NCBI GenBank assembly: GCA_021841005.1
Contig: JAKBVZ010000020.1
Location: forward strand, 20,752-84,751
DNA: 64,000 nt
Source: Actinomycetes bacterium
Lineage (GTDB): Bacteria; Actinomycetota; Acidimicrobiia; Acidimicrobiales; JAMCPL01
Direction of reading: 5' to 3'
Shown here: one piece after another, positions 24,950 to 51,277 of the stretch
Layout: each line of letters begins with the position of its first letter
Numbering within the stretch: position 1 is the first letter of the stretch
Notes under the pieces: generated by a model
Told to the model about the DNA's origin: nothing
The model's input: only the letters and a program-made list of their open reading frames with translations
Database searches by the model: none
Made by a program: the position numbers and the translations under genes

Positions 24950-25048
24950 TCACTTTCAGGATGATCGTGCAAGTACGCCTTCCGCTGCGGCCACTATGCC
25001 GCAGCCCGTGCATTACGGCTGTCACTTTCAGGATGATCGTGCAAGTAC
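24950..25048. repeat. MIRU-like element, locus A: 27-bp direct repeat flanking a 45-bp hairpin core (72-bp period)
   Basis: TCACTTTCAGGATGATCGTGCAAGTAC occurs at 24950-24976 and at 25022-25048. The core contains CTGCGGCCACTATGCCGCAG (7-bp stem, 6-nt loop). Confidence 0.9.
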
Positions 25049-25355
25049 ACTGTTCCGCGCCTCAATACTCAATATATGTGCACTGCGCAATGCATCGACC
25101 CGTTTTCATATCGACACGTTGCCACCACCACCAAATTGACATGAAATTGCAATGCAACGGTAAAGAGTTTGTCATATTTGTGGGTTATAGTATGTTTGGT
25201 AGCAAGTAGGCGCTCATCGGGCAACCTGAACGGCCGTTCGAATCTGAAAGGGCGTTCGTGCGTCTATTGCCAAGGATGCGATTCATATACGCAACCGCTA
25301 CAAGTGGCGTGCACTCTCCGGGAGGAGTGCCTTGACCGGACAGGAGAGTGAAACC

Positions 25356-28300
25356 ATGTCATTTGGAAAGAGAGGCCGCAGATTAAGGGTATTGTCGGGT
25401 ATTTTGCCGGGCGTGCTACCGGTAGCAATTGTGGCAGCCGTATTGCTGCCTCTCCTGGCCACAGCAGCAAATGCAGCTACAGTTCCCCAGGTGGTAAACG
25501 TTTCAGCAAGCGTGGCTGGTGGTTCTGGCTCAGCTGGAGGATGGGAGGTATCCAACGCCGCTCAACTGCCCGTCAGCGCTCTTACCGCAATATCCTGCCC
25601 TGCCACTGGTGATTGCGTGGCTGTGGGCCAGGGATTGTCCGGCAATACGATATCCGCCGTGACCTCGAATGGCGGGCTGGATTGGACAGTGCAGCAACTG
25701 CCTAGTGAGGTAGGCTCGCTTACCGGGATATCCTGCCCGACTACGCAAGCGTGCTTTGCTGTGGGGCAGGCATCCGAACCTTACAACAGCTTCACCCCAG
25801 GTGGAATCGTCGTATCCACCAGTAATGGTGGCTCCAGCTGGACTATCCAGGACATCCCCGGAGGAGTATCGTCGCTGACCGGCATCTCGTGTGCAGCTTC
25901 ATCCGATTGCTGGGTAGTGGGAAGCAACACTGCGTCTGTACCGGTAATGCTCAGTACCACAAACGGTGGTACCACTTGGACCGCTACTACACCCCCGGCT
26001 CCCGCCGGTAATCTTGATGTAATATCCTGTCCTGCTACAACTCACTGCGTAGCCACCGGTGCCAGTGGCGCAGTAGTAGTCACATCTGACGGGGGGAAGA
26101 CGTGGACAGTCCCACCCGTACCAAACGACACCACCAATCTTGATTCCGTATCATGCGCGGATGTCATGTTCTGCATGACCGTGAATATCCTTCCTTACAG
26201 CGGCAACTTCCGGGTCCGGAACGAGTCATCCACAGGTTTAGTAAGCTCATTTCAAACCTCCGCAGGCTCGGCTACAGCCCAGTCTGTATGGGTCACCACC
26301 GACGGAGGAACCACCTGGACAGTAGAGCAGGTGCCATCCAATATTATTCAACTGGCAGGTGTCTCATGCGCGCCTGCGTCCTCCAGCACCATCACAGGAA
26401 CAGCCTCTACCGTCTACACACCTTGTACTGCAATAGGTACGGAAGTCACCTCCGGCACACCCGATAATCCAATTACAGAAAACACGGTCGTACTCGCGTC
26501 CACTGACGGCGGATCGACCTGGAATACGGAGAACACTTCACCATCGACGGTTAATCTATTGGCGATATCGTGCAACGATATCACTGATTGCGTAGCCGTA
26601 GGTGCTGAGTCTCCCAACACCTCAACGACCTCACTGCCCACCCTGCTTGGAGGGTCCGAAACCAGTATAGCGTTGTCCACCACAGACGGAGGCAACGCAT
26701 GGAATCTTACGAACGTCCCTACTGCCAGCCAGGTACTCCTGAATGTGAACTGTGCCAGCACATCTGACTGCGTGGCGGTCGGCTCCACCACGGGAACCGG
26801 TGGAAGCACTGCAGCTCTCGCACTTTCCACCTCCAACGGGGGACAGACTTGGAGGCCGGAAAATCCACCTGCCAATGCGCCATTGCTGGATGTCTCCTGC
26901 CCGACTACGACTCAGTGTACAGCGGTGGGCGGTAATCCTATAGGGGGAATCTTCGGCCCCGGACCTGCAACCATTGTAAGCACTTCCAATGGAGGATCTT
27001 CGTGGACATCCGGGACTATACCGAACAATTTGTTGAGCATCCTCGGGGTCTCTTGCGCTTCTGTCAATTTCTGCGTATCCGTGGGTGCAGGGTTCCCTCC
27101 CAATGCCAAATCCGGGTATTCCTTGTCCAGCATAGTAGGTGTCATCCTTGTCAGCACCGATGGTGGCACCTCATGGAAAGAGCCGGCTTCATATCCAGGC
27201 GATGTGCTTTCCTCCGTGTCATGTCCTACAGTGTCCACGTGCTACGCATCAGGCAGTTCCATTCTCGGATCTGAGGGATTCAATGGGTTACCGGGAATGG
27301 TGGTGAAGACCATCAACGGTGGAAGCACGTGGTCGGTACTGCAGCCTGCCGGCAAGGACACCCCCGAACTGAACGGCATTGCATGTTCCTCTGCCACCCA
27401 GTGCGTCGTATCCGGAGGATCGTTACTGAACGGCCTTGAGGGCGGGAGCGGTGTAAGTGGCGGCTTGGGGTTCACCACCACAAACGGTGGAGCAAGCTGG
27501 AATAAATCCGCCTTCCCTTCAGGATCGCAGCCAGTCATGCGAATTTCCTGCGCAAATACTCAGGACTGCTGGGCAGCCAGTGGTGAATTATTCTCACCTT
27601 CTTCCGGAGGCATTCTGGCCAGCACCGATGGAGGAGTACAGTGGACCGAGCAGGCACTGCCCGTACAGCCTATGTCCATGTTCGGGGTATCGTGTCCCTC
27701 GACCACCGGCTGCTACGCTGCCGGATTGACGCCAAGCCAAAGCATTCTGCTCTCGACAACGACCGGAGGCTGGCTGGTGCCTGCTATTAGCTCTGTCAGC
27801 CCTAGCGACGGTTTCTCCTACGGTGGAACTACAGTGACCCTGTCAGGTACCGGATTCGTTCAAGGTCACACGGTGGTCAATTTCGGCACTGCGCCAAGTC
27901 CATCCGTAGATGTCCAGTCATCTTCTGAGCTGACCGCGGTGGCACCACCGGGAAGCGGAACTGTCAATGTCACGGTTCAAACTCCTGGCGGGACGACCAC
28001 CCCTACCAGTCATACCACCTTCAGTTACCAGCCTGCCGGCAGCTACACCTCTAGGGCAGCTTCCCCTTTCACGCCGGTCACTCCTTACCGTATAGCGGAC
28101 ACAAGACTGGGCTCCGGTGAGCCCTACGCGGGCCAGACCCTTGACACTGGCAGCGTGCTGAGCGTCAAGATCGGAGGTACCCAGCCTCAAGGGAGTGGCA
28201 ACGGTATACCCATCAGCGCCACAGCGGCAGTGATCAACGTAACCGCCGTCAACGCCGCTTCTCCAGGCTACCTGACCGTATGGCCAGCCGGGTATTCCAA

Positions 28301-29333
28301 GAGCACCTCCTCCGCGGTCAACTATTCCGGTACTGCGCCGGTCGCCAATCTGGTGACCGTTCCAATTGGACTGAACGGCCAGGTAAATGTATATGCCTCC
28401 AGCGGGCCGGTGGACGTGGTAATGGACGCGGAAGGCTGGTACGGCCCTGCAGGTACCAGCGGCTTTACCGCGATTAGTCCTTATCGTATAGCGGATACAA
28501 GGCCAGACTCCGGTGAGCCTTACGCGGGACAGACCCTTGCTCCCCATCGTGTGCTCACCATAAAGACCACTGGAACCGGCGCTACGCCCGCCAACGGCGG
28601 TGCCGGCGTTCCGATCACTGCCACTGCCGTAGACTTGAACGTAACCGCCGTCAACGCCGCTTCTCCAGGCTACCTGACCGTATGGCCAGCCGGCCAGGCA
28701 CGCCCGTTGGCATCCACAGTCAACTTCTCAGCACCTCCTATAATCTCGCCGGTGATACTGGATGGAAACCCGGCAACCTCATCGGGTCCCTTGCCTGTAT
28801 CGAACTCGGTTGCAGTAGCAGTGTCCTCCTCTGGTGAAATAAGCATTTATAACGGTTCGCAGGGAAGTATCAACGTAGTGGTGGACGTACAAGGCTGGTT
28901 CTCCACCCCAGACAGTACGAGCGCCTCTGGAAGTTCTCCTTTAAAGTTCACGCCAGTCAATCCCTACCGTATAGCGGACACGAGACCGGGTTCCGATGAG
29001 CCCTACGCGGGACAGACTCTTGCTCCCCATGGTGTGCTCACCATAAAAGCAGGTGGGACAGCCCCTCTGGGCAATGCCAACGGCGGTACCGGCATTCCGA
29101 TCACTGCCACCGCTGTAGTACTGAACGTTACCGTTGCCACCTCCGATGCATCAGGCTACCTGACCGTATGGCCGGCAGGCCAGGCACGCCCGTTGGCATC
29201 CAATACCAACTATGGAAAGGACACGATAATTGCAAGCCAAGTGGTCGTCCCTCTCGGATCAGGAGACAGCATCTCGATTTACAACTCAGCCGGCTACACC
29301 AACGTAGTGGTGGACGTGGAAGGCTGGTTCTGA
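25356..29333 (+). CDS. Large secreted protein: 14 BNR/Ycf48-like propeller units + IPT/TIG domain + three copies of an uncharacterised PYRIADTR domain
   Basis: Signal peptide MSFGKRGRRLRVLSGILPGVLPVAIVAAVLLPLLATAANA. There are 14 units, each pairing [IV]SC-x5-C-x-[AV]xG with S-x-[DN]-G-G-x-x-W. An IPT-like segment follows (SVSPSDGFSYGGTTVTLSGTGF). Then come three 128-161 aa repeats. I moved the start to the ATG at 25356, after GGAGAG. Confidence 0.8.
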   Translation: MSFGKRGRRLRVLSGILPGVLPVAIVAAVLLPLLATAANAATVPQVVNVSASVAGGSGSAGGWEVSNAAQLPVSALTAISCPATGDCVAVGQGLSGNTISAVTSNGGLDWTVQQLPSEVGSLTGISCPTTQACFAVGQASEPYNSFTPGGIVVSTSNGGSSWTIQDIPGGVSSLTGISCAASSDCWVVGSNTASVPVMLSTTNGGTTWTATTPPAPAGNLDVISCPATTHCVATGASGAVVVTSDGGKTWTVPPVPNDTTNLDSVSCADVMFCMTVNILPYSGNFRVRNESSTGLVSSFQTSAGSATAQSVWVTTDGGTTWTVEQVPSNIIQLAGVSCAPASSSTITGTASTVYTPCTAIGTEVTSGTPDNPITENTVVLASTDGGSTWNTENTSPSTVNLLAISCNDITDCVAVGAESPNTSTTSLPTLLGGSETSIALSTTDGGNAWNLTNVPTASQVLLNVNCASTSDCVAVGSTTGTGGSTAALALSTSNGGQTWRPENPPANAPLLDVSCPTTTQCTAVGGNPIGGIFGPGPATIVSTSNGGSSWTSGTIPNNLLSILGVSCASVNFCVSVGAGFPPNAKSGYSLSSIVGVILVSTDGGTSWKEPASYPGDVLSSVSCPTVSTCYASGSSILGSEGFNGLPGMVVKTINGGSTWSVLQPAGKDTPELNGIACSSATQCVVSGGSLLNGLEGGSGVSGGLGFTTTNGGASWNKSAFPSGSQPVMRISCANTQDCWAASGELFSPSSGGILASTDGGVQWTEQALPVQPMSMFGVSCPSTTGCYAAGLTPSQSILLSTTTGGWLVPAISSVSPSDGFSYGGTTVTLSGTGFVQGHTVVNFGTAPSPSVDVQSSSELTAVAPPGSGTVNVTVQTPGGTTTPTSHTTFSYQPAGSYTSRAASPFTPVTPYRIADTRLGSGEPYAGQTLDTGSVLSVKIGGTQPQGSGNGIPISATAAVINVTAVNAASPGYLTVWPAGYSKSTSSAVNYSGTAPVANLVTVPIGLNGQVNVYASSGPVDVVMDAEGWYGPAGTSGFTAISPYRIADTRPDSGEPYAGQTLAPHRVLTIKTTGTGATPANGGAGVPITATAVDLNVTAVNAASPGYLTVWPAGQARPLASTVNFSAPPIISPVILDGNPATSSGPLPVSNSVAVAVSSSGEISIYNGSQGSINVVVDVQGWFSTPDSTSASGSSPLKFTPVNPYRIADTRPGSDEPYAGQTLAPHGVLTIKAGGTAPLGNANGGTGIPITATAVVLNVTVATSDASGYLTVWPAGQARPLASNTNYGKDTIIASQVVVPLGSGDSISIYNSAGYTNVVVDVEGWF

Positions 29334-29335
29334 GA

Positions 29336-29611
29336 TCAGCCGCCGGCGACAGCAGGAACGACCGAGAGGGTCTGCCCATCCGTGACAGGTGTGTCCAGGC
29401 CATCGAGAAAACGGACATCCTCATCGGCTAGGAACACATTGACAAACCTCCGCAGACTGCCGGACTCGTCAAACAATCTCTCACCGATACCTGGGTACTT
29501 GGCATCAAGTTCCCTCAGCGTGTCTCCGACAGTCGCTCCACTGATACTGACCTCACCCAGTCCATCGGTGAGTTCCCGTAGCTGCGATGGTATCCTTACT
29601 GTAACGCTCAT
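29336..29611 (-). CDS. MoaD/ThiS-family sulfur-carrier protein (MetO/CysO-like), C-terminal GG
   Basis: 91-aa beta-grasp-like protein ending in AVAGG. It lies downstream of the threonine-synthase-like gene. Start is the ATG at 29611, preceded by GAGGAG (ORF track extends to 29665 through the repeat). Confidence 0.75.
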   Translation of the reverse strand: MSVTVRIPSQLRELTDGLGEVSISGATVGDTLRELDAKYPGIGERLFDESGSLRRFVNVFLADEDVRFLDGLDTPVTDGQTLSVVPAVAGG

Positions 29612-29764
29612 CTTCTGTGCTCCTCTTCTAGGTCTGCTGCGGCCACTATGCCGCAACTCGTGCACCGTGTGTTGCTCATCTTCTGTGCTCCTCTTCTAGG
29701 TCTGCTGCGGCCACTATGCCGCAACTCGTGCACCGTGTGTCGCTCATCTTCTGTGCTCCTCTTC
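29606..29764. repeat. MIRU-like element, locus D: 2.3 tandem copies of a 68-bp unit between metM-like and metO-like genes
   Basis: The 23-bp junction GCTCATCTTCTGTGCTCCTCTTC is present at 29606, 29674 and 29742. It is the complement of SD plus ATGAGC. The copies are separated by two 45-bp cores containing CTGCGGCCACTATGCCGCAA. Minus-strand mini-ORFs lie at 29676..29747 and 29608..29679. Confidence 0.95.
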
Positions 29765-29806
29765 CCGTGAGTCATACTACCAGTGCCTGTGTGTGGAGAC
29801 CATCCG

Positions 29807-31051
29807 TCATACACCGGAAATGCGGCCGGCCATTGCCTCGGCAAAGGCATCCATCCTGGCTGCGATGGTAACTGTTGGGTGGACAGAGTCGGTTAGAGCC
29901 TCGACGGTCTTGAGACCGTGACCGGTCACGAAGATGACCACCTTCTCCTCCGGCTTGATCACCCCTTCCGACACCAGCTTGGCGAGTGAAGCCACGGTCA
30001 CTCCACCTGCCGTTTCAGCAAATATACCTTCCGTTCTCGCCAGTAGCTTGATACCTTCGATTATCTCGCCGTCCGTCACGCTGGCAAACGAGCCTCCCGT
30101 GGACCGGACCGTATCGAGAGCGTACCAGCCATCAGCAGGGTTCCCTATGGCGAGCGACTTAGCGATTGTATCGGGTTTTACAGGTCTTATGACATCCTTG
30201 CCTGCCCGGAACGCATCGGCTACCGGAGAACATCCAAGCGCCTGTGCGCCTGATATCCGAACCGCTGGTTCCTCGGCAAGCAGCCCCACGGTATACAGCT
30301 CCTTGAACCCCTTTGCGATCTTCGTCAGCTGGCTGCCGGAAGCCACAGGAACCACCACGTGATCGGGAGTGGTCCATCCCATCTGCTCCGCCACTTCGAA
30401 CGCCAGCGTCTTGGAACCTTCCGCGTAGTAGGGACGCAGGTTCACATTCACAAAGGCCCAATCGTCGTGCTCACTGGTCAACTCCGCACACAACCTGTTC
30501 ACGTCATCATAAGTCCCTTCCACCGCAACCAGATGTCCGCCATATACCGCAGTCGTAATCACCTTTGCGACCTCCAGGTCATGCGGTATGAACACCAGTG
30601 ACTCCACCCCTCCTCGGGCCGCGTGCGCCGCTACGGCATTGGCGAGATTCCCTGTAGATGCGCAAGCCACCACTTTGAAACCCAGCTCACGAGCTTTGGC
30701 GAGTGAGACAGATACCACCCTGTCCTTAAAAGAACCGGTAGGGTTGGCCGTATCGTTCTTTACCCAGAGCGATTGCAATCCCAACTCGGAGCCGAGCCTA
30801 CCTGCCCGCACAAGAGGAGTGAAACCGGTTCCCATGGACAGATCGTCATTTCCCAGCACCGGAAGGAGTAGTCCGTATCTCCAGATACTACGCGGGCCTG
30901 CCTCTATGGACTCCCGGCTGATCCCCTCCTTAATACAATCGTAGTCGTAGTCCACTTCGAGCGGCCCGAAACAAAAGTCGCATACATGCAGCGCCTCCGC
31001 GGGATAGAGCCGTCCGCACTCCCTGCACTTCAGACCATTTACGCAATTCAC
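29807..31051 (-). CDS. Threonine-synthase-family PLP enzyme with N-terminal Cys4 zinc ribbon (MetM-like candidate homocysteine synthase)
   Basis: PLP lysine motif TGSFKDR. N-terminal CRECG...CDFC. Start is GTG, 5 nt after GAGGAGG. A SAM riboswitch lies upstream and a sulfur-carrier gene downstream. Confidence 0.8.
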   Translation of the reverse strand: MNCVNGLKCRECGRLYPAEALHVCDFCFGPLEVDYDYDCIKEGISRESIEAGPRSIWRYGLLLPVLGNDDLSMGTGFTPLVRAGRLGSELGLQSLWVKNDTANPTGSFKDRVVSVSLAKARELGFKVVACASTGNLANAVAAHAARGGVESLVFIPHDLEVAKVITTAVYGGHLVAVEGTYDDVNRLCAELTSEHDDWAFVNVNLRPYYAEGSKTLAFEVAEQMGWTTPDHVVVPVASGSQLTKIAKGFKELYTVGLLAEEPAVRISGAQALGCSPVADAFRAGKDVIRPVKPDTIAKSLAIGNPADGWYALDTVRSTGGSFASVTDGEIIEGIKLLARTEGIFAETAGGVTVASLAKLVSEGVIKPEEKVVIFVTGHGLKTVEALTDSVHPTVTIAARMDAFAEAMAGRISGV

Positions 31052-31166
31052 AGCAACCTCCTCATCATCGGTCGGGCATTGGCACCTGGTCTACCTTCAT
31101 AAGACATCACAGGTTGCCGCGGCTTCACAGGGCCCGTCCCTCAGCCGCTCTGGATGATGACAGCTG
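31052..31166 (-). promoter_or_regulatory. SAM riboswitch of the SAM-I clan (S-box-like core, apparently no internal P4)
   Basis: The minus-strand RNA reads UCAUCAUCCAGAGCGGCUGAGGGACGGGCCCUGUGAAGCCGCGGCAACC...GGUGCCAAUGCCCGACCGAUGAUGAGGAGG. It matches the S-box conserved blocks (AGAG-GGC-GAGGGA-GGCCC-UGAA-CC-GCAACC...GGUGC-AA). The P1 3-prime strand runs into the Shine-Dalgarno sequence. Confidence 0.8.
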
Positions 31167-31241
31167 GATGGCTACTGATGATTCATCCAAATGTCAATTT
31201 AAAGTATAGCACTGCTTACAAGGAGCGATAACCAGAGCTCA

Positions 31242-32699
31242 TTGACCCAGGTCACAAGAGACTTTGCCGATGCTGAGCACGGGGAAGTCAGTTTGCGATA
31301 TGCTATTTTCACCATGCTCGATGTCGAAGTCATAGTCGCATCGAATAGGGGCCCAGTCTCATTCGCACTCGACACAAAAAATAATCCCGTAGTGGCTTCA
31401 AGCGGGGGAGGTCTTGCAGGCACTCTCAGAAGGCTCCTGATTGGCAAGGGCGCCACATGGGTAGCGTGCTCCATGGGAGAAGCGGACACCAAGGCTGCAA
31501 GCTCTGGGCTGGCCGGAGCCGGAGCCGGCGAGGGCATCAATCTTGTAATGGTAAACCTGGATCCTGGCATCTACCACATGGCCTACGATACTGTCGCCAA
31601 TTCCACCCTCTGGTTCCTGCATCATCACATGATGGATCTGTCACGTGCACCGAGATTCGGCAAACGCTGGATGGAGGCATGGAAAGGCTACAGGGATTAC
31701 AATCAAGCATTCGCTGGTGAAATTGCCCAAGTTGCCGATAACGACGCATGTGTACTTGTCCAGGATTACCACCTTGCACTTCTACCGGGCATTCTCGCTG
31801 GAATCCGTCCAGACCTTCGTTGCATCCATTTCTCACATACCCCTTTCGCTGCCCCTGATTTCTTCGGTGTGCTGCCAACCGCTGTAGGCCGGGAACTCAT
31901 CACGGCCATGAGCACGGCCAAGAATTGCGGTTTCCATACCGAAAAATGGGCTGACTCTTACCGTAGGTCATGCATCTCTACGGGAATCGATTCACCTACC
32001 ACTTTTGTCTCTTCTCTCGGAGTGGACGCTGGCCTACTGCGCGAGGAGGCTCGAAGCGCCAAGTGCTCTGAAGCCAAGTCATGGGTGGAAAATGTGGCAG
32101 ACGGGCGTAGGCTCATTGTACGGACAGACAGGATGGAGCCATCCAAGAACGTGCTGCGCGGTCTCTGGGCATTTGACGAATTGCTGGCCGAACACCCTCA
32201 GTGGATAGAGCAGGTCGTGTTCCTGGTGCTCACCTACCCTTCCCGGCAGAACCTTCCCGAGTACCTGGCATACGCTTCCGAAGTGGAGACCACCGTGGAT
32301 TACCTGAATGACAAGTGGTCGACCAAATCCTGGACTCCAGTGGTGCTCGATCTCTCGGACGACTACTACAAGTCCCTGGCCGCACTATCGCTTTACGATC
32401 TACTTATGGTCAATCCGGTGAGAGATGGCTTGAACCTGGTCGCAAAGGAGGGTCCGCTGGTCAACGAGCGCAACGGCTCACTCCTTCTCAGCCGGGAAGC
32501 AGGCACTTTCGGCGAACTCAGCCAAGCCGCCATCGCCGTCAATCCTTACGATGTGGGCGAAACCGCTACCGCTGTTCATAAGGCGTTGCTGCTCGACGAT
32601 TCTGAACGTGCATCCCGCTCAACCAAGCTGGAGGAGCTTGCATCGACACGTACACCCGAGGACTGGCTGGATGATCAGCTCTCCCAGGCCCTAGCTTGA
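31242..32699 (+). CDS. otsA: Alpha,alpha-trehalose-phosphate synthase (GT20)
   Basis: GT20 features are present (VIVASNRGPVSF, VQDYHLALLPGIL, VNPVRDGLNLVAKEG). Start uncertain. Confidence 0.9.
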   Translation: MTQVTRDFADAEHGEVSLRYAIFTMLDVEVIVASNRGPVSFALDTKNNPVVASSGGGLAGTLRRLLIGKGATWVACSMGEADTKAASSGLAGAGAGEGINLVMVNLDPGIYHMAYDTVANSTLWFLHHHMMDLSRAPRFGKRWMEAWKGYRDYNQAFAGEIAQVADNDACVLVQDYHLALLPGILAGIRPDLRCIHFSHTPFAAPDFFGVLPTAVGRELITAMSTAKNCGFHTEKWADSYRRSCISTGIDSPTTFVSSLGVDAGLLREEARSAKCSEAKSWVENVADGRRLIVRTDRMEPSKNVLRGLWAFDELLAEHPQWIEQVVFLVLTYPSRQNLPEYLAYASEVETTVDYLNDKWSTKSWTPVVLDLSDDYYKSLAALSLYDLLMVNPVRDGLNLVAKEGPLVNERNGSLLLSREAGTFGELSQAAIAVNPYDVGETATAVHKALLLDDSERASRSTKLEELASTRTPEDWLDDQLSQALA

Positions 32700-32715
32700 G
32701 TCAAATGCTACCGCT

Positions 32716-44265: not shown

Positions 44266-44339
44266 GCCGGTGTGGCGCAGTTGGCTAGCGCAGGCGATTT
44301 GTAATCGTCAGGTCGTGGGTTCGAATCCCACCACCGGCC
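44266..44339 (+). tRNA. tRNA-Thr (anticodon UGU)
   Basis: A hand-folded cloverleaf fits. Acceptor GCCGGTG/CACCGGC, D-arm GCGC-AGTTGGCTA-GCGC, anticodon arm GGCGA-TTTGTAA-TCGTC, T-arm GTGGG-TTCGAAT-CCCAC. 74 nt, no encoded CCA. Confidence 0.9.
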
Positions 44340-44521
44340 CTTTACAAGTGCTGATCACAAGCAGGGACAACTAGCAAGAATTGCATATACAAAATCAGCC
44401 AACCAATGACCAGGTAAGCTGTCTCTTTGCATTTGGTTATGAGACGGCAGAGCCAGTGGGAATCCCGAATACTCGGTCCCGCGTAGCCACAGCGATGGAC
44501 GCATAGGCTATTCTATTTGCC

Positions 44522-45874
44522 ATGACCCAACACGCCAAGCAAGGAACTTACGGTACCAGAGGTAGATCAGGAAAACAGGTGGACGAAAGCTCGATGGCTG
44601 GACTGTCTGCATTGAGCGCGCCCAGCCGGAAGCCGGTTGTAGGAGCGGCAATCGTCATCATCATTGCAGTGCTCGTCATTCTTCAGCTGGCACGAAGTGT
44701 TCCACCCGCCAGCATAAGCTTGACAAGTTCCAGCGCGCCGCTTACCTTCCCCGGTTCGGTTCCGAGCCTTCCCTGGCCAGCAAGCGGCGAGGCTGCACTG
44801 GCTATCGGCGGTATAGGTACCATCGGCGTCCATGGAGGGAATCAGCCACAACCCACTTGGAGCGTTGCAAAGCTCATGACCGCCTACCTGGTGCTTAAAG
44901 CTCACCCGCTCCAGCCAGGCGCCTCGGGACCCTCTCTCAGCGTCACCCCGGCAGATGTCGCCATCTACAACCATGACGTTGCCCAAGGCGACTCTGTGGT
45001 ACCGGTCACCGCAGGTGAAACACTGACCGAACGCCAAGCGCTGGAAGCACTGCTCATTCCCTCGGGAGATAACATAGCTCCGATTCTTGCCAACTGGGTT
45101 GCTGGATCGGAATCAGCCTTTGTTGCAAGGATGAATGCACAGGCGGCTGCTCTGGGCATGTCCAATACCCACTATGCAGACGCAAGTGGAGTGAACCCGG
45201 CCACGGTAAGCACTGCTGCCGACCAGCTCAAACTATTGGAATTCGTCTGGCAAGTGCCAGCGCTCAGGCATACGACCGAAATGGCCCAGGTAACCACCCT
45301 ACCAGCGCCATCGAACTGTGCAACGTGCATATACAACAACGATGCCATGATCGGTCATTATGGTTTCATTGGAGGGAAGACCGGGTCGGCCACCAACGGA
45401 GCTTTCTCGTTCGTCGCCCAAAAGACCATCGGAGGCCAACCCAGAACCATCTTCGGATCGGTAATGGGGCAGGTGGCATCATCGACCCCGACCCTGCCGA
45501 TGCCCCCCAATGCCAATAACCCGCTCAGTGTAATCGATCAGGCAGAAGCGGCGGCATATAACCTCGTGGACGCGCTCGGCAGTTTTCCTTTGGGACAATC
45601 CTCCCTCCCCGCCGGTACGTCACTGGGAACCATCTCAGTACCCTGGGCATCAAGCATCAAGGCGGTCACCAGCAGACCGCTCACCTTTTATGGTTATCCT
45701 GGCATCCACACCTCTATGACCGTGCGGAAAAGGAAGCTCGGCACTACGGTTTCCGCTCACCAGGTAGTCGCCACCCTTACCATCACTGCAGGCAACAGCA
45801 CCACCACAGTAAATCTCATGGCATCATCGGCCATACCAAGCCCAACGGTAACCTGGAAGCTGACCCGACTGTGA
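44522..45874 (+). CDS. D-alanyl-D-alanine carboxypeptidase (serine peptidase S11, PBP5-like)
   Basis: N-terminal TM anchor. Active-site motifs SVAK (SxxK) and SGDN (SxN), plus GGKTGS (KTG). Confidence 0.85.
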   Translation: MTQHAKQGTYGTRGRSGKQVDESSMAGLSALSAPSRKPVVGAAIVIIIAVLVILQLARSVPPASISLTSSSAPLTFPGSVPSLPWPASGEAALAIGGIGTIGVHGGNQPQPTWSVAKLMTAYLVLKAHPLQPGASGPSLSVTPADVAIYNHDVAQGDSVVPVTAGETLTERQALEALLIPSGDNIAPILANWVAGSESAFVARMNAQAAALGMSNTHYADASGVNPATVSTAADQLKLLEFVWQVPALRHTTEMAQVTTLPAPSNCATCIYNNDAMIGHYGFIGGKTGSATNGAFSFVAQKTIGGQPRTIFGSVMGQVASSTPTLPMPPNANNPLSVIDQAEAAAYNLVDALGSFPLGQSSLPAGTSLGTISVPWASSIKAVTSRPLTFYGYPGIHTSMTVRKRKLGTTVSAHQVVATLTITAGNSTTTVNLMASSAIPSPTVTWKLTRL

Positions 45875-46005
45875 CTTATTCCGGTTTTACTTTGAAGGAC
45901 CGGAACAGCTCGGCATGTTTGTCAGACAGTAGCCCAGTAAGAGCACACGCACAATCACCCAACACCAGTAAGCAAGAACTACCCGGCCGGCGGTTGGAGC
46001 ACGAT

Positions 46006-46244
46006 TAGAGGCTCAGCGGATAGGCATCTCGGGCTCGTCGTCCCCCTGGCTTCGCATCGCTGTGAAGTCGTGTATTGTCCATGCACGGAAGCTAGCCCTT
46101 CTGCCTCCACCTTGCACTACTCGCCCGGATGAACGCCTCCCTGATCTAAGCCGACAATCTACCAAGTCGCTACGGCCACTATGCCGTAGCCCGTGCGCTG
46201 GACCACGCCTCCCTGATCCAAGCTGCCTATCCGCTGAGCCTCTA
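46006..46244. repeat. 239-bp unit bounded by perfect 21-bp inverted repeats, containing MIRU-like locus B (19-bp direct repeat, 72-bp period)
   Basis: TAGAGGCTCAGCGGATAGGCA at 46006-46026 is the exact reverse complement of 46224-46244. Inside the unit, ACGCCTCCCTGATC[T/C]AAGC at 46133 and 46205 flanks a core with CTACGGCCACTATGCCGTAG. Confidence 0.85.
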
Positions 46245-46483
46245 GAGCATTGCGAACCTGATCCTATTGGAAAGAACCGAGCCAGGTGACCGTCGCAAAA
46301 GCGCGCCATCCTCGGTGAGTGCTATGCCGTGTATCCTCTCAAGAAGATCCAGGCACGTATCAAACCGCTAATAATCTCGGTACTTGACTCAGTTCCTTCC
46401 ATATACCCACAATCACATTATACTCCTGCCATCCCGTAATTACCACAAAAAATATGAAGGGCGTTGCGCTCCCCTTCGCTCAA

Positions 46484-47851
46484 TCACATTGTAGCGATAT
46501 TGCCAAACCGAGCATACCGATCCACAAACGACAAACGTACCAAACCAGTAGGACCATTCCTATGCTTGGCAATAATTACCTCCGCTGTTCCCCTATCCGG
46601 GGAATCTTGATTATATATCTCATCTCGATATATAAACAACACCACATCTGCGTCCTGTTCAATCGAACCGGATTCGCGCAGGTCTGCAAGCATCGGTCTC
46701 TTGTCCTGGCGCATCTCCAGGTTCCTCGACAGCTGGGACAGAGCGAGGACAGGAACATGCAGTTCCCTGGCCAGAATCTTGAGACCTCTGGATATCTCAG
46801 ATACTTCTACTTGGCGGTTCTCCGCATTATGCCGTCCGGTCATAAGTTGCATATAGTCCACCACGATCAGCCCTAGTCCACGATTGGAAGACATCAGCCT
46901 CCGCGACTTTGCCCTTATGTCCATGACGGTAAGATTTGGATTGTCGTCTATGAAGATTGGTGCATCATCCAGCTTGTTTATAGCGCCCCATATTTTGGCC
47001 CAGTCCGACTGGGAAAGGTGACCACTTCTCAGATGCTTTACGTCCACCTGGGATTCCGAAGATATAATGCGCTGCGATAACTCCAGGTGGCTCATCTCCA
47101 ACGAGAAAAGAAGTACGGGTATCTTGGAACGGATGGCGGCGTGGGTCAGCGCGCCCAATGCAAAACTGGTCTTGCCCATTGATGGCCGTGCTCCAACCAC
47201 CACCAGATTCGACGGCTGCAAGCCTGAAAGGTACTCATCGAGTCCTGTGTAACCAGTGGCGACGCCGGTAATCTGATGACCTGCTTCCTGGATGCGTTCC
47301 AGCGTCTCGACACTCTCTTTCAACAGCTCTGTAATGGGTTTCAAACTGTCAATAACTCTCCGGCTTGCGACCTCGAATATCATGGACTCTGCTCGGTCAA
47401 CTACTTCCAGGACATTTTCAGGGATTTCATAACCCATTTCCGCAATATCGCTCGCAACAACAATCAGCCGGCGTAGTAAAGACCGCTCCTCTACGATCCC
47501 GGCATAGTGCGAGGCGGAACTGATTGAGGGAGTGGATGCTTGAAGCGAGATCAGAACCGAAGGGTCTTCAAGGATCTCCGCATGACCCATTCTCCTGAGC
47601 TCTTCAGCCACCGTAACAGGATCTACGGGTTCCCCCTTGGTATACAGAGAACAGATGGCGGAAAAGATGTACCCGTGTGCAGGCTTGTAAAAATCTCCCG
47701 CCTGGCATCGTTCCAGCGCTACTGCAACGGCATCCCTGGATAGCAGCATAGAACCAAGCAGCGATTCCTCGGCCTCGATATTGTGTGGGGGAACCCTCCC
47801 ATTGAGAGGCTTTGCCGGTAAATGCTGTGAATGGGCGAGAGTCTGTACCAT
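46484..47851 (-). CDS. dnaB: Replicative DNA helicase DnaB (no intein)
   Basis: The N-terminus PPHNIEAEESLLGSMLL and Walker A GARPSMGKTSFAL are present. 455 aa. Confidence 0.97.
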   Translation of the reverse strand: MVQTLAHSQHLPAKPLNGRVPPHNIEAEESLLGSMLLSRDAVAVALERCQAGDFYKPAHGYIFSAICSLYTKGEPVDPVTVAEELRRMGHAEILEDPSVLISLQASTPSISSASHYAGIVEERSLLRRLIVVASDIAEMGYEIPENVLEVVDRAESMIFEVASRRVIDSLKPITELLKESVETLERIQEAGHQITGVATGYTGLDEYLSGLQPSNLVVVGARPSMGKTSFALGALTHAAIRSKIPVLLFSLEMSHLELSQRIISSESQVDVKHLRSGHLSQSDWAKIWGAINKLDDAPIFIDDNPNLTVMDIRAKSRRLMSSNRGLGLIVVDYMQLMTGRHNAENRQVEVSEISRGLKILARELHVPVLALSQLSRNLEMRQDKRPMLADLRESGSIEQDADVVLFIYRDEIYNQDSPDRGTAEVIIAKHRNGPTGLVRLSFVDRYARFGNIATM

Positions 47852-48097
47852 TACCTACAGTATGCGCCTTTCACCTGTGAGCATGCCACGGCATAAACCT
47901 GTGATATGCCTGTGGATTCCCTGACTTTTCCTCTGGACAAGCTGTGCAAATAATAGCTGCGAACAAAACAGCCGTGCGCGCACCTGATCACAGATGCCGA
48001 CATTTCCGCCATTTTCCACGAGGTGTCTCGTAGGCCACCATGATAAGCCGTACCGCTATAATTGATCATGGTTTCAGGCTACACAGGGCCTGTAACA

Positions 48098-48550
48098 CTA
48101 TTCCTCTGCCATGACCTCCAGCGTGACCTCAGAATCCACTCCCGGATAGAGATTCAATGTGACCACGTGGACACCCAGTGATTTTATGGGAGCAGCAATG
48201 TGGACTGACTTCCGGTCGACTTCCACGCCGGTTTGGATACGCACAGAATCGCTCACATCAGCAGCCGTAACAGACCCGAACAGACGTCCCTCGGGTCCTG
48301 CTTTGGCATAGACCTTGATAGTGGCTTCTTCCAAAATCGTCCTGATGGATTGAGCGGATTCCATGTCTCTGGCCTCTTTGAGATCCCGGGCACGGCGCAT
48401 GGCTTCAGCCTGTTTCGTCATTTTCTCCGTAGCGGCAAGTGCACTTCTCGAAGGCAAAAGCTTGTTACGAGCATAACCATCTGCAACTTCGACAATGTCG
48501 CCTTTCCTACCAAGATCATTGACATCCGTCCGTAGCAGCACCCTCATCAC
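48098..48550 (-). CDS. rplI: 50S ribosomal protein L9
   Basis: [32 protein letters not shown] is typical of L9. Its start overlaps the rpsR stop (GTGATG). Confidence 0.95.
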
Positions 48551-49239
48551 TGAATGTCTCCCCCGGTACCGCCCTCATCTTCCCTGTCACCGGAAGCCAC
48601 CGTACCACCCGGATCTGTAATGTCCGAGTCGGTCACGGCGCCCGCCGGAGCGCCCGGACCAGCTGGATCCGACCCGCCCGTCGGCACCTCTGAGCTACCT
48701 GAATCCAACGGGCCACCTGGAATCTCCGAGCCATCCGTACTCCCGGCAACATCCAGCCTTTCCGTAGAACCCCTACCGGTCTTGCCGGCACCACCTCCCC
48801 TGCTGGGATTATCCGTCCTGCCCCGTGGTCTTGCTCTGGACCCTTCGGAATCCCGTATCGGGCGGTCGGTATGATTCATGTGCTCACCCGTGACAGCTCT
48901 CTCGCCATCTCCTGGGAGGATATCACCCATATCCAGCGAGTAGGAAGACTGCCTGCGAGTTCCCGTTCTTTCAGCGCTAACGCGCTGGGCATATGGTAAC
49001 AATGCTACTTCACGCGCAGTCTTGACAGCTATGGCTATATCATGCTGATGCTGAGTGCAGTTACCCGTGACGCGCCTTGCCTTGATCTTGCCCCGCTCGC
49101 TAACATATCTCTTCAAGAAATCCACATCCTTGTAATCCACCCACTCTATATCATCAATACAGAGCAAGCAGGGCTTTTTTCTGTACTTACGCCCTGTGTC
49201 TTTCGTAACTTTGCGATTTTTCATACCATTTCTTCCCAT
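48547..49239 (-). CDS. rpsR: 30S ribosomal protein S18 with about 145-aa disordered C-terminal extension
   Basis: S18 core ([63 protein letters not shown]) is followed by a Gly/Asp/Ser/Pro-rich tail. I chose the start at the ATG at 49239 (GAGGAG 10 nt upstream), just after the ssb stop. Confidence 0.85.
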
Positions 49240-49240
49240 A

Positions 49241-49747
49241 TCAGAAAGGCTCCTCACTTTCATCGTAATGCACGGCACCCGGCTCGTCTTCCGCATAGTG
49301 CTTGGATGACGGTGCACCGTATGGACTACGACGAGAAAATCCTGGCGCAGGCGTACCGGTCTCCCCAGCCCCGCTTGCTTCCCTGCGCTCATTCTTTACA
49401 ATCTGTGCAGTAGCCCACCGCAAACTGGGACCCACTTCATCCGCCGTGATCTCGACCTTGTAACGATGCTCGCCGTCTGGAGTCTCCCAGGACCTTTGAT
49501 CAAGCCGACCCGTTACGATCACGCGAGTACCCTTTGACAATGACTCACTGGCATTTTCCGCCATCTCACGCCAGCATATCACATCAAAAAACGATACGTT
49601 CTCTTCCCAATCCTGTGTCTGCCGGTTCTGCCAGCGCCTGTTGACAGCCAACCCGAAAGCCGCTTTGGCAATCCCACTGGGGGTATAGCTCAGTTCCGGA
49701 TCTCTGGTCACATTACCAATCAATACAACCGTATTACCATTTGACAT
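49241..49747 (-). CDS. ssb: Single-stranded DNA-binding protein
   Basis: OB-fold N-terminus ([21 protein letters not shown]) and an acidic C-terminal tip (DESEEPF). Confidence 0.95.
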
Positions 49748-49824
49748 TTTATATCACTCCCACTCTTTAAGAAGGCACCGTTCAAGCATACTCAAAATAT
49801 CCAAAAACCCACAAGATCATATAC

Positions 49825-50181
49825 TCAGACAGCAACCCTGGACATTCTCGACAACTCCCTCGCCTCACTCCATTTGACCTGCTTAGTGTAGTTGTCAGGA
49901 AGTTTGACAACCTTATGACGAATAATCTCATCCATAAGGTAAAACGCGCGCTCAATCTGACCTATGCCACTTCCGTCAGCTTCAAAGCGAAAGAGCGCGT
50001 AGCTTCCTTCGTCATGATGATCAATACTGTAGGCCAGCGTTCTCTTGCCAAGACTTTCAGTTGTGACCACCGTAGCGCCGGCAGAACGTAAAGTGTCCTC
50101 TGCCCGCTTTATGGCACTTTCCAGAACACCTGGCTCGAGCTTGGTATTGAAAATTACCATAGCTTCATAAAGTCGTTGCAT
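49825..50181 (-). CDS. rpsF: 30S ribosomal protein S6
   Basis: YEAMVIFNTKLE...RTLAYSI...GSYALFRF is typical of S6. First gene of the rpsF-ssb-rpsR-rplI operon. Confidence 0.93.
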   Translation of the reverse strand: MQRLYEAMVIFNTKLEPGVLESAIKRAEDTLRSAGATVVTTESLGKRTLAYSIDHHDEGSYALFRFEADGSGIGQIERAFYLMDEIIRHKVVKLPDNYTKQVKWSEARELSRMSRVAV

Positions 50182-50366
50182 GATCTAATCTGTCTCCTTC
50201 GGTCCTGAGTCACATCCCTTGCAATAATGGATGATCCTCTCTAGGGCCCCCGTAGGGGCAGGTAGCGTAATAATCAGGTCAGTATATCACAAGGAACCGG
50301 GCCAATGCGCTCCCGTGCGTTCAATTTCAATACCCAATTTCACCGGCTGCCGCAGTTGCGCGGCGG

Positions 50367-51182
50367 TCAATGATAAGACTCCTCGTCTGAAGGATACCTG
50401 CCCGCTCTGACATCCTCTGACCATGACGATACCGCTCTAATGGCATCGTCAGCCAGAGTTGCATACCTTCGCACAAACTTGGGTACCCTTTCGCTCAGAC
50501 CCAACAGATCGTGAAATACCAGTACCTGGCCATCACAGTCGGCACCCGCTCCGATCCCGATGGTCGGCACCGGAACGCTCGCAGTGACCTCGGCAGCAAC
50601 TGCCCGAGGCACCGCCTCCAGCACGATGGCAAAGCATCCCACTTCGGCCAAGCCAATCGCATCCTGAACCAGCATCTCGACAGCCAACGGATCTTTGGCC
50701 TGCACTCTATGGCCTCCCAGGCGATGTATGGACTGTGGCGTCAATCCGATATGTCCCATGACAGGAATCTCGGCGGCAACCAAGGCTTCAATCGCCGACC
50801 GCCTGATCCGCCCTCCCTCCAATTTGACCGCTCCAGCGCCGGCTCTGATGATAGCAGCGGCATTTCGTATCGTATCGGCATCACCAAGGTGATACGAGAG
50901 CCAGGGCATGTCCCCGACAACCAAGGCATTAGGCTTGACGCTACTGACAGCAGCCACATGGACAACCATATGCTCCACGGTCATATTCAAGGTGTCGCTC
51001 TGTCCATGCACCGTCATGGCGGCGCTGTCGCCGACAAGAATAATGTCGACACCTCCCGCATCAGCTATCCGAGCTCCAGGAGCGTCGTATGCCGTCAGCA
51101 CGACTATAGGGGCACTGCTTTTTGACCTCTTACGTACCTTGATGTCCGGAACGGTAACTTGTGGAGCCATAGCTATACCCAT
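50367..51182 (-). CDS. panB: 3-methyl-2-oxobutanoate hydroxymethyltransferase
   Basis: VLTAYDAPGARIADAGGVDIILVGDSAAMTVHG and KLEGG motifs. Confidence 0.93.
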   Translation of the reverse strand: MGIAMAPQVTVPDIKVRKRSKSSAPIVVLTAYDAPGARIADAGGVDIILVGDSAAMTVHGQSDTLNMTVEHMVVHVAAVSSVKPNALVVGDMPWLSYHLGDADTIRNAAAIIRAGAGAVKLEGGRIRRSAIEALVAAEIPVMGHIGLTPQSIHRLGGHRVQAKDPLAVEMLVQDAIGLAEVGCFAIVLEAVPRAVAAEVTASVPVPTIGIGAGADCDGQVLVFHDLLGLSERVPKFVRRYATLADDAIRAVSSWSEDVRAGRYPSDEESYH

Positions 51183-51277
51183 ATTAGCCTAATCAGGTGG
51201 TTCCACGGGCTGCGGCATAGTGGCCGCAGCGGATCTGGAGATAGCTATACCCATATTAGCCTAATCAGGTGGTTCCA
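51169..51277. repeat. MIRU-like element, locus C: 37-bp direct repeat flanking a 35-bp hairpin core (72-bp period) at the DUF5318/panB junction
   Basis: ATAGCTATACCCATATTAGCCTAATCAGGTGGTTCCA occurs at 51169-51205 and at 51241-51277. The core contains CTGCGGCATAGTGGCCGCAG. A minus-strand mini-ORF lies at 51189..51254. Confidence 0.95.

Follow-up and report, generated by a model that had tools for sequence, protein, structure and literature searches.

A lineage-restricted hairpin element of Acidimicrobiales with long target duplications and a near-constant sum of insert and duplication

The MIRUs of mycobacteria are 40-100 bp units that lie between operon genes in actinobacterial genomes and carry small ORFs overlapping neighboring start and stop codons, and their filled versus empty orthologous sites suggest transposition; the direct repeats reported at filled sites are tetranucleotides (PMC3184786). 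MITEs duplicate a short target of fixed length, and the Rickettsia palindromic elements (RPEs) are palindromes that sit in frame in genes, where they add peptide (PMC3184786). For IS1549 and IS1634 (IS1634 family), the available part of PMC2266710 gives variable direct repeats of 8-514 bp at insertion and proposes no mechanistic model. REPs and REPINs, which go with RAYT transposases, are short, GC-rich hairpins that are dispersed, noncoding, mostly extragenic, and present in both orientations. REPs typically occur in inverted pairs or clusters, and we know of no target duplications flanking them; to our knowledge, RPEs also lack long target duplications. The units of CRISPR arrays typically measure 68-74 bp, and Cas1-Cas2 is the only described integrase class known to us that duplicates a target of 23-40+ bp around an insert of 30-45 bp. 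Off-array integration creating new arrays was reportedly seen by Nivala et al. in 2018 (cited in PMC6698737). In this study, we describe a hairpin element whose geometry is a long duplication with insert and duplication together measuring ~70 bp; among the bacterial repeat families, we found no description of such an arrangement.

The element was studied in a 64,000-nucleotide stretch of DNA (the window) from an Acidimicrobiales MAG (species A); the window lies close to oriC. A search for the core CTGCGGCCACTATGCCGCAG with up to 3 mismatches returned exactly the five copies at four loci that an earlier note on this DNA had listed, against a chance expectation of 0.01, and there was no sixth. 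The cores lie at 24985(+), 29637(+), 29705(+), 46170(+), and 51210(-), in both orientations as claimed, with four on the plus strand and one on the minus strand. The hairpin fold bore out the proposed CACTAT loop of 6 nt, and the stem, given as 7 bp, is in fact 8 bp long (GCTGCGGC-CACTAT-GCCGCAGC). A covariance model run over 231 kb placed 12 copies at 46-62 bits, clear of noise at 13 bits or less, which together with the five window cores upholds the proposal of a distinct dispersed family. The expectation of many copies genome-wide did not hold in the sole whole genome scanned, the species-B representative MAG JAMCPL01, which contained only 3 exact core matches; the covariance model added none in the 231 kb. 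Alignment of the 12 copies showed that only ~32 nt are conserved between loci, namely, a short left arm ending in (G)TCYG, the hairpin, and CCGTGCA; the element has no gene of its own. The 45-mer has a folding energy of ~ -20 kcal/mol (z ~ -3). The absence of a U-tract after the stem indicates that the hairpin is not an intrinsic terminator. We also found no evidence that the hairpin is kept up after insertion: across copies, 9 of the 96 stem cells lack a pairing partner, with mismatches accumulating in old orthologous copies, and the two compensatory stem pairs were equaled in 67 of 500 shuffles, so that the covariation is not significant.

No known Rfam family was detected at the element in a window-wide scan and two low-threshold regional scans; a match to CRISPR-DR16 had an E value of 6 and was discarded as noise. 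Plasmid and phage collections gave no match to the element, and the core was found solely in one uncultured Acidimicrobiales lineage (species A and B). The copies, inserted next to housekeeping genes, are mostly intergenic and occupy operon junctions, a promoter region, the interior of another mobile element, and an in-frame position within coding sequence. We read it as a lineage-restricted, nonautonomous mobile element that is no member of the MITE or REP families and apparently none of the MIRU family.

The window loci are W1 (groEL/CIRCE promoter region), W2 (thrC-thiS junction), W3, and W4 (DUF5318/panB), and their features are collected in Table 1.

Table 1. Coordinates of target duplications and inserts at the four loci of the window.
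Feature	Coordinates	Strand	Details
W1 target duplication copy 1	24950..24976		27 nt, TCACTTTCAGGATGATCGTGCAAGTAC
W1 insert	24977..25021	+	45 nt; left arm GCCTTCCG, 8-bp-stem hairpin 24984-25005, right arm CCCGTGCATTACGGCTG
W1 target duplication copy 2	25022..25048		Perfect 27-nt repeat of copy 1, period 72
W2 target duplication copy 1	29606..29628		23 nt; minus strand GAAGAGGAGCACAGAAGATGAGC
W2 insert unit 1	29629..29673	+	45 nt; core 29637-29656
W2 target duplication copy 2	29674..29696		23 nt, period 68
W2 insert unit 2	29697..29741	+	45 nt; core 29705-29724
W2 target duplication copy 3	29742..29764		23 nt, period 68
W3 flank repeat copy 1	46133..46151		19 nt, 1 mismatch to copy 2
W3 insert	46152..46204	+	53 nt; core 46170-46189
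W3 flank repeat copy 2	46205..46223		19 nt, period 72
W4 target duplication, panB-proximal copy	51169..51205		37 nt; panB RBS and start region
W4 insert	51206..51240	-	35 nt; core 51210-51229; right arm reduced to CCCG
W4 target duplication, other copy	51241..51277		37 nt perfect, period 72

The flank repeats of 27, 23, 19, and 37 nt described previously were recovered, perfect at W1 and W4 and with one mismatch at W3, and so were the periods of 72, 68, 72, and 72. The claim that every copy is bracketed by such repeats stood for all copies in the window and failed in the sister species B, where a perfect core at L013, 1570(-), has no flank repeat. In species C, a relative, W1 is empty, with one homologous copy of the 27-mer directly beside CIRCE, and W2 is empty, with the 23-mer RBS-ATG sequence present once. 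The W4 site is empty in both species B and species C; there, the 37-mer occurs once and DUF5318 and panB overlap or abut. The ancestral flank is therefore single at W1, W2, and W4 and the repeat was made at insertion, as the earlier note had supposed. The alignment of species A and B at W4 displays insertion and target duplication directly: exactly 72 nt (51206-51277) are present in A alone. These empty sites with single flanks argue for a mobile element, and the sequence comparisons make it highly probable that it inserts with a long target duplication of 22-37 bp.

The insertions differ in age. W1 and W2 are common to species A and B (88-94% DNA identity) in diverged form, and their cores in species B are each 3 positions off the 22-nt hairpin consensus. 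W3 and W4 were seen in species A, and the orthologous species-B sites are without them; W4 is recent, with 37/37 identical repeat positions and a perfect core. Further copies were found in species B at L008, at L010, and twice at L013. The L010 copy is an in-frame 24-codon addition within a YkuD gene and is accompanied by a second, decayed unit with the same 72-nt period. At L013b, the duplication covers an RBS and ATG and creates an ATGA-coupled small ORF as at W2. The W3 copy carries a compensatory G-C to A-T stem change and lies inside a separate 239-bp inverted-repeat element (46006-46244), and its borders are ambiguous. The surrounding element, which has terminal inverted repeats of 19 bp and a duplicated TA, is MITE-like.

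In several cases, the duplicated stretch carries expression signals of the neighboring genes: an RBS and ATG at W2 and L013b, the stop and start of overlapping genes at W4, and a likely -35 region at W1. The last of these is a putative -35 sequence (TTGCAC, minus strand) in the first W1 copy, upstream of the groEL CIRCE operator. At W4, the copy distal to panB holds the last codons and stop of the DUF5318 gene (51245-51718, minus strand). At W2, GAAGAGGAGCACAGAAGATGAGC supplies both the RBS and the ATG of the minus-strand ThiS-family gene (29336-29611), and each unit forms a 23-codon ORF whose TGA overlaps the true thiS ATG as ATGA. This reading frame remains open in species B, although ~5 of its 23 residues differ between A and B, mostly through nonsynonymous changes (read by eye). 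TRF reported 2.4 copies at 97% for W2. Unit number was directly observed to differ among 10 species-A assemblies, with two units in five and one (unit 2 absent) in the other five, a pattern that short-read collapse could mimic. The thrC-thiS junction thus behaves in a MIRU-like manner, with a duplicated RBS and start, small ATGA ORFs, and one or two units.

The earlier observation of a fixed period with a varying duplication length was extended beyond the window. Across eight independent insertions, the periods are 72, 68, 72, 72, 71, 71, 72, and 71. Five of them have clean borders, with target duplications of 22-37 nt and inserts of 35-49 nt, and it is on these small sets that the length rule rests. 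In the five clean copies, duplications of 27, 23, 37, 22, and 27 nt accompany inserts of 45, 45, 35, 49, and 45 nt, respectively, and the two lengths are anticorrelated (r = -0.96, p = 0.01, n = 5). Their sum stays at 68-72 and has a standard deviation of 1.7 versus 5-6 for either part (n = 5), so the rule itself, a total of ~70 bp (68-73) for element and duplication, is directly observed. A scan of 84 kb of species A for local direct repeats (score ≥13, period 30-130) returned 8, against 0.05 expected from shuffles, and the period was 68-74 in 7 of them.

The claimed likeness to MIRUs held for the small ORFs and duplicated start at thrC-thiS and did not hold for the sites, which extend beyond operon junctions; the duplications also differ from the tetranucleotides of MIRUs. 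As with MIRUs, units in the same size range lie between operon genes of an actinobacterial genome, filled and empty orthologous sites suggest transposition, and tandem unit number appears to differ among assemblies (here at W2, the other loci being invariant). MIRU-type junction ORFs that overlap neighboring start or stop codons are present at W2, at L013b, and partly at W4, and absent at W1, W3, L010, and L013a. The whole unit is conserved in MIRUs, whereas here conservation covers only ~32 nt, and a further 22-37 nt per unit are locus-specific target duplication. The hosts also differ, being mycobacterial for MIRUs and Acidimicrobiales here, and the sequence appears unrelated, judging from the Rfam scans and the lineage restriction. 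The element is therefore a MIRU analogue, not a member.

With REPs and REPINs, the element shares a short, dispersed GC-rich hairpin that is mostly extragenic, noncoding, and found in both orientations; membership was rejected, since beside the palindrome there are long target duplications and each copy stands alone or in a direct tandem array via the flank. MITEs are likewise small nonautonomous elements that duplicate their target and show filled as well as empty sites, but they measure ~100-400 bp versus 35-49 bp here. MITE membership was also rejected: the two ends of the insert do not form an inverted repeat, only the central hairpin and short arms being conserved in 12 copies, and the duplications of the clean copies (22, 23, 27, 27, and 37 nt) are not short and fixed. 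Long, variable direct repeats at insertion recall IS1549 and IS1634, the former actinobacterial. Unlike the 35-49 bp element, these are complete insertion sequences that encode a DDE transposase and end in inverted repeats, and the available part of PMC2266710 mentions no trade-off between the lengths of element and repeat. The gene tables of the examined loci contained no transposase gene. The in-frame L010 copy resembles an RPE, although RPEs are larger (~105-146 bp) and show no sequence relation. A target of ~23-37 bp duplicated around a 35-49 bp insert, giving a ~70 bp unit, also resembles a Cas1-Cas2-made CRISPR unit; relative to an array, however, the arrangement is inverse, with a local duplicated part, a constant insert, and a duplication length that is not fixed.

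Taken whole, our best explanation joins a nonautonomous element, a long duplication, the ~70 bp length rule, a ruler, and later slippage, and we consider its chances to be even. A trans-acting enzyme would recognize the hairpin and join the element into a target that may be opened by two opposite-strand nicks 22-37 nt apart. Gap filling would duplicate the stretch between the nicks and yield target-insert-target, with a shorter right arm pairing with a longer duplication. No candidate for the mobilizing enzyme was seen in the window or any examined locus. The constant sum of element and duplication suggests that the second cut is measured from the element and not from the first cut, and such a fixed distance could come from DNA wrapped once around the complex. 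The ruler mechanism taken alone is possible but doubtful. Also doubtful is the broader proposal of a new DNA-integration mechanism with a ~70 bp molecular ruler and an insert/duplication trade-off, for example, through a second strand transfer one protein-wrapped turn away. The insertions may be tolerated in a compact genome because the long duplication leaves the signals of both neighbors intact (-35 box, RBS and start codon, stop codon, overlapping gene ends), and this tolerance would extend to overlapping genes and in-frame coding sites. Slippage or unequal recombination between the two long repeats would add units and produce a minisatellite, as at thrC-thiS, and the same recombination could remove the element without a scar.

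Several features of the inserts would also suit capture during break repair, in which staggered breaks are closed by end joining (Ku/LigD or microhomology mediated), overhang fill-in makes the duplication, and an abundant small hairpin DNA, possibly multicopy single-stranded DNA of the retron type or a piece of a plasmid, serves as filler. Duplication length varies, and inserts have a nearly constant left end and a variable right end, as for DNA with one defined terminus. Short matches of the element ends to the target (W1 left arm, W4 TG) also blur the limits of the inserts. Moreover, species A contains core-less duplications at window positions 10570-10678 (period 68) and at the parS locus L048 (8869-8979, period 74), the latter with a unique 37-nt filler, which suggests that a ruler may belong to a general, core-independent duplication or repair process rather than to the element. 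Under random capture, however, filler and duplication would not be expected to add up to a constant length, and the same core, with conserved arms, was taken up at least 8 times. The plasmid and phage collections held no source molecule, and no reverse transcriptase, Ku, or LigD genes were seen at the examined loci. We regard this account as unlikely.

The length rule could also postdate insertion if a fixed insert of ~45 nt were placed with a ~27 nt duplication and later exchange between repeats traded repeat against insert at an unchanged period. Lengths of 27 and 45 nt are found exactly or nearly at W1, L010, and W3 (if its decayed repeat was 27 nt), and repeat decay trivially shrinks the apparent duplication and enlarges the insert at a constant period. 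Exchange itself is shown by concerted evolution at W1, where arm and flank covary within species A and likewise within species B: in each species, the flank and the 8 nt past the repeat have derived states in common. The W1 flank in species C starts with GCCATCG, and the left 8 nt of the W1 insert are probably target derived, which would put the true duplication at 27-35 nt and the insert at 37-45 nt. Against this reading, W2 is clean relative to its empty site yet has 23 + 45 = 68 nt, so that duplication length varied at insertion, and W4 is recent yet has 37 + 35 nt. No obvious recombination route would extend a repeat into a nonhomologous insert at exact length, and we think it improbable that the period arose in this way.

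An integrase of the CRISPR-adaptation type (Cas1-Cas2 or a casposase relative) acting ectopically, with the hairpin as favored substrate and the units lying off array, would match the repeat-length and spacer-length geometry of 22-37 nt around 35-49 nt, and the parS locus shows that a unique-sequence insert also occurs. Unlike spacers, one and the same insert recurs, at 8 sites or more. The duplications differ by as much as 15 nt, whereas Cas1-Cas2 repeat-size rulers fix repeat length, according to studies cited in PMC6698737. No CRISPR array or cas gene was present in the ~230 kb examined, and this origin appears quite unlikely. That the hairpin is not selfish but functional (an mRNA stabilizer, processing site, or protein-binding palindrome, with the small ORFs for translational coupling, a role suggested for MIRUs) is very unlikely, given that its stable fold, two compensatory changes, and gene-start locations with ATGA-coupled ORFs (W2 and L013b), one still open in species B, are set against both orientations relative to transcription, promoter and coding sites, unpaired stem cells, shuffle-matched covariation, a changing W2 peptide, and the missing U-tract, and that function would leave the origin unexplained.

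In summary, our preferred reading remains insertion of a hairpin element with a long duplication, perhaps measured from the element. If true, the ruler mechanism would provide a concrete origin for operon-embedded MIRU-type minisatellites, in which insertion would duplicate a long stretch with the RBS and start codon and the units would then be amplified, and it would represent a natural source for proto "repeat-spacer-repeat" units.

The window contained five matches (up to three mismatches) to the 20-mer core CTGCGGCCACTATGCCGCAG, compared with 0.01 expected in shuffled sequence, and these fell at four loci, W1 to W4, each with a short hairpin insert between direct repeats of local flanking DNA. 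The direct repeats were found independently of the core, by a separate repeat search. At W2, two tandem units come with three copies of the flank repeat, and Tandem Repeats Finder described this array as 2.4 copies at 97%. The hairpin consists of an 8-bp stem (GCTGCGGC / GCCGCAGC) with a CACTAT loop, and folding of the 45-nt insert gave about -20 kcal/mol (z of about -3). The coordinates and numbers given for these copies in the earlier note were correct except for the stem, which it had put at 7 bp.

Coordinates of the hairpin element copies, core-less repeats, and neighboring features (window positions unless a locus is named)
Feature	Position	Core match (strand)	Flank direct repeat	Period	Context
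W1	24950-25048	24985 (+)	27 nt, perfect, at 24950 and 25022	72	upstream of groEL, just past CIRCE operator
W2	29606-29764	29637 (+), 29705 (+)	23 nt, at 29606, 29674, and 29742	68	between SAM-riboswitch-controlled threonine-synthase-like gene and ThiS-family gene
W3	46133-46223	46170 (+)	19 nt, one mismatch, at 46133 and 46205	72	between D-Ala-D-Ala carboxypeptidase gene and dnaB
W4	51169-51277	51210 (-)	37 nt, perfect, at 51169 and 51241	72	precisely at junction of DUF5318 gene and panB
Decayed copy, oriC side	L048 477-569		22 nt	71	
Core-less repeat	10570-10678		41 nt, one mismatch	68	divergent intergenic region, GH1 glycosidase gene / unannotated ORF
Core-less repeat, parS locus	L048 8869-8979		37 nt, perfect	74	between gidB and parA, about 1.1 kb past window end
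Species C repeat	L033 9411-9509		20 nt	79	between PadR and DUF5318 genes
CIRCE operator	24916-24942				
SAM riboswitch	31062-31160 (-)				
239-bp MITE-like element	46006-46244				
111-nt relative of MITE-like element	L039 2501-2611				species B
145-bp segment	53663-53807				between inositol-1-phosphate synthase and poly(A) polymerase genes
parB	62739-63824, with parA to dnaN beyond (L048)				window end
(GATGTA)n tract	L052 16312-16412				
(ACT)n tract	L013 1-95				locus start

The window was 100% identical to contig DAHYFJ010000005.1 of the MAG GCA_027390655.1, and its organism, placed in the Acidimicrobiales by protein neighbors, is referred to here as species A. Exact-protein look-ups provided a sister, species B (JAMCVI01 and DAIDLQ01; DNA identity to A of 88-94%), to which JAMCPL01 very likely also belongs, and a farther relative, species C (JBTSSU01; ThrC 94% and PanB 81% identical). 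Orthologous sites in these relatives show that the flank repeats are target duplications made at insertion. The earlier note had named empty orthologous sites as a test of its element family, and they carried a single flank copy at W1 and W2 in species C and at W4 in both B and C. The W4 site of species B holds one copy of the 37-mer, TGGAATCACCTGATCAGGCTGGTATGGGCATAGCTAT, with a 10-nt overlap of the DUF5318 gene and panB, while that of species C holds a homologous single copy, with the two genes 2 nt apart; gapped alignment of A and B left a single stretch, 51206-51277, that is confined to A and measures exactly 72 nt. At the W2 site of species C, a single GAAAAGGAGCACAGAAGATGAGC leads directly into the thiS coding sequence, and thus the duplication is 23 nt and the insert 45 nt. 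The W1 site of species C has one homologue of the 27-mer, adjoining CIRCE.

W1 and W2 are also filled in species B at the same positions; therefore, these insertions are older than the A/B split. The species B cores at both sites are each 3 positions off the 22-nt hairpin consensus, and its W1 repeats have two mutual differences and a 1-nt indel that brings the period to 73. W4, whose repeats and core are all perfect, is younger than the split. Further species B copies occur elsewhere, at loci L008 and L010 and twice in L013 (L013a and L013b). Insertions have thus recurred over time: the element is mobile, and its length leaves no room to encode anything.

As judged from sequence, the long duplication keeps both neighboring genes intact. 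At W4, the end of the DUF5318 gene, with its final codons and stop, is preserved in one repeat copy and the start region of panB in the other. An ORF of 23-24 codons begins at the duplicated start codon of W2 and of L013b and passes through the element; with a period of 2 mod 3 and a gene that begins ATGA, its TGA stop overlaps the authentic ATG. The L010 element lies in frame within the N-terminal part of an L,D-transpeptidase (YkuD; 72 nt, or 24 codons) and duplicates the peptide SYDPAGNHT, with a second, decayed unit of equal period upstream. The W1 repeat likely contains the predicted -35 hexamer of groEL. Two W2 units were present in five assemblies and one in five others, counts in which short-read collapse is possible, and one single-unit assembly represents a strain with flanking SNPs. 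This copy-number variation is likely real.

The periods of eight independent insertions were 72, 68, 72, 72, 71, 71, 72, and 71, with a recognizable repeat of 13 to 37 nt. Some of this spread reflects decay, which trivially trades repeat for insert, and the length test was therefore limited to the five copies whose repeats are perfect or nearly so. Their duplications of 27, 23, 37, 22, and 27 nt accompanied inserts of 45, 45, 35, 49, and 45 nt, respectively (r = -0.96, p = 0.01), and the standard deviation of the sum was 1.7, compared to 5-6 for each part alone. The left arms of these five copies were short and varied little in length (5-11 nt, ending (G)TCYG). Their right arms reached 4 to 24 nt past the hairpin and compensated for the duplication, the two together coming to 40-46 nt. 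Insert borders are not fully sharp. The species C flank also contains the 8 nt found left of the W1 hairpin (GCCYTCYG), and in each of A and B these vary in concert with the downstream flank; they are thus target-derived, so that the W1 duplication measures 27-35 nt. We consider it unlikely that the geometry was fixed at 27 + 45 and that exchange between repeats later blurred it. Compensation between long duplications and insert length is an unusual property that rests on few copies.

Among local direct repeats in 84 kb of species A, seven of eight had periods of 68-74, compared with 0.05 expected at any period. The core is absent from two of the seven, which weakens the idea of a ruler exclusive to the hairpin element. 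One of these, seen in every strain examined, surrounds the 27-nt segment GTGCTCCGAGCTGTAGGAGCGCCTGTT, which is similar to the downstream RBS region. A reading of it as a diverged member of the family was rejected, since the one heptamer in common, ACTATGC, is expected by chance, and it looks like an ordinary 68-bp tandem repeat. The other, fixed in three assemblies, has a parS-like site (TGTTTCACGTGAAACC) per copy and a unique 37-nt spacer, with the same geometry of about 70 bp as the hairpin element. In species C, the direct repeat GCAGGCAGCCGGATAGATGC surrounds a 59-nt unique insert, possibly a comparable target-insert-target arrangement around other DNA.

Taken together, the sites establish insertion with a target duplication of 22-37 nt, a near-constant total, and unit numbers that differ between assemblies. 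We hypothesize that a trans-acting enzyme recognizes the hairpin, which probably serves mobilization, and joins the element to two far-apart target nicks. The position of the second nick would be set by its distance from the element rather than from the first nick, in which case a shorter element would give a longer duplication. Gaps would be filled by repair synthesis, and slippage between the long repeats would add units or could delete the element scarlessly. The insertions could instead reflect end-joining repair of staggered breaks that captures abundant hairpin DNA, although this seems improbable, and off-array integration by a Cas1-type integrase appears quite improbable; no transposase, cas, RT, or HUH gene was present in any fetched locus. 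That the hairpin is a selected regulatory structure is very doubtful, given that neither covariation nor the small-ORF peptide gave any sign of selection on the element after insertion. Compensatory G-C to A-T stem changes occurred in two copies (W3 and L013b), but 67 of 500 shuffles equaled that number and the covariation was not significant, and the differences between A and B in the W2 small-ORF peptide were mostly non-synonymous by hand reading of the sequences. Unpaired stem cells (9/96) were found mostly among old orthologous copies. Donor-flank transduction, with insert arms taken from the duplicated flank of other copies, was rejected on a chance-compatible 5-mer and 6-mer match, and diverged tandem duplication on hand alignment of insert and adjacent target in the same register, with random-level identity (about 26% at W4 and 27% at parS).

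Core scans covered a genome set with a single representative of each species (596 Gb), metagenome contigs from JGI, and viral contigs, in which CTRCGGCCACTATGCCGYAR had 13, 9, and 0 matches, respectively. True matches occurred only in the MAG JAMCPL01 (species B), as three exact matches at three loci; all others fell by chance in coding sequence of unrelated taxa, with no flank repeat. The many copies genome-wide that the first reading had expected were thus unsupported in the one whole genome scanned. A covariance model built from 12 copies and searched against 231 kb from all three species and a relative more distant than these recovered those 12 alone (46-62 bits; next best, 13 bits), with no diverged copies past them and none in the species C sequence. 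Extension of species A by 10 kb beyond the window at either end yielded one older, decayed copy on the oriC side, with 4 changes in the 22-nt hairpin, and no further copy on the other side. There was no Rfam family match at gathering or permissive thresholds and no meaningful blastn match of the 45-mer in plasmids and phages. The family is low-copy, young, and lineage-specific.

Several features of the surrounding sequence were also observed. The genes parAB, gidB, rnpA, dnaA, and dnaN lie a few kb from the window, which ends in parB and continues as parA-gidB-jag-yidC-yidD-rnpA-(rpmH)-dnaA-dnaN within 10 kb; this order indicates that the window abuts the chromosomal replication origin. GC skew is negative over the entire window. 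The CIRCE operator is canonical (TTAGCACTC-N9-GAGTGCTAA), with the W1 insertion immediately distal. A SAM riboswitch (72 bits) precedes the genes for the threonine-synthase-like PLP enzyme and the ThiS-family protein, which suggests that SAM controls a methionine or cysteine pathway dependent on a sulfur carrier. The W3 hairpin copy is hosted by a MITE-like element that ends in perfect 19-bp inverted repeats (GAGGCTCAGCGGATAGGCA) and has duplicated its TA target; the species B site is empty and has one TA. A shorter relative that lacks the hairpin core occurs in species B only, and the 19-bp terminal repeat occurs also in species C and L035. A 145-bp segment of species A, single-copy in the sequence examined, is missing at the orthologous B position. 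Long microsatellites at L052, where the JGI assembly has the tract and the NCBI assembly of that locus does not, and at L013 may be assembly artifacts or hypervariable tracts.

DDE transposons usually make target duplications of a few base pairs, far shorter than the 22-37 bp seen here. Membership among MITEs fails on terminal inverted repeats and short fixed duplications, and among REP/REPIN elements on duplications and arrangement. The CRISPR repeat-spacer unit is closest in geometry, but the constant and variable parts are swapped in the hairpin element. MIRUs are closest in behavior: some copies of the hairpin element likewise sit at operon junctions and carry small ORFs that overlap neighboring genes, and unit number probably varies, and to that extent the comparison made in the earlier note stands. 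The element resembles MIRUs by analogy and is not one of them, however. It probably has no sequence relation to MIRUs, whose repeat spans the entire unit and for which the direct repeats on record are tetranucleotides alone (PMC3184786). IS1549 and IS1634 are reported to generate long, variable direct repeats of 8-514 bp, no mechanistic model being offered there (PMC2266710), and, unlike the hairpin element, are full insertion sequences. We conclude that the element is a small non-autonomous repeat type with long duplications that compensate for insert length; the initial observation is confirmed, and its interpretation is partly supported.

Small dispersed repeats such as REP, MITE, MIRU, and RPE are common in bacteria, and the origin and spread of several are unclear, with the origin of MIRU-type minisatellites being an open case. 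The filled and empty sites described here are clean enough for a direct reading, as an element of 35-49 bp plus a target copy of 22-37 bp, about 70 bp in total. Should the length rule fail, this would be merely a low-copy, lineage-specific repeat family of an uncultured actinobacterium. If it holds genome-wide, it would point to an unusual ruler in the enzyme responsible for integration or repair, and it would explain how the element lands without lethality on overlapping genes, promoters, and start codons, how insertions are instantly converted to unstable minisatellites, and how scarless loss is possible in principle.
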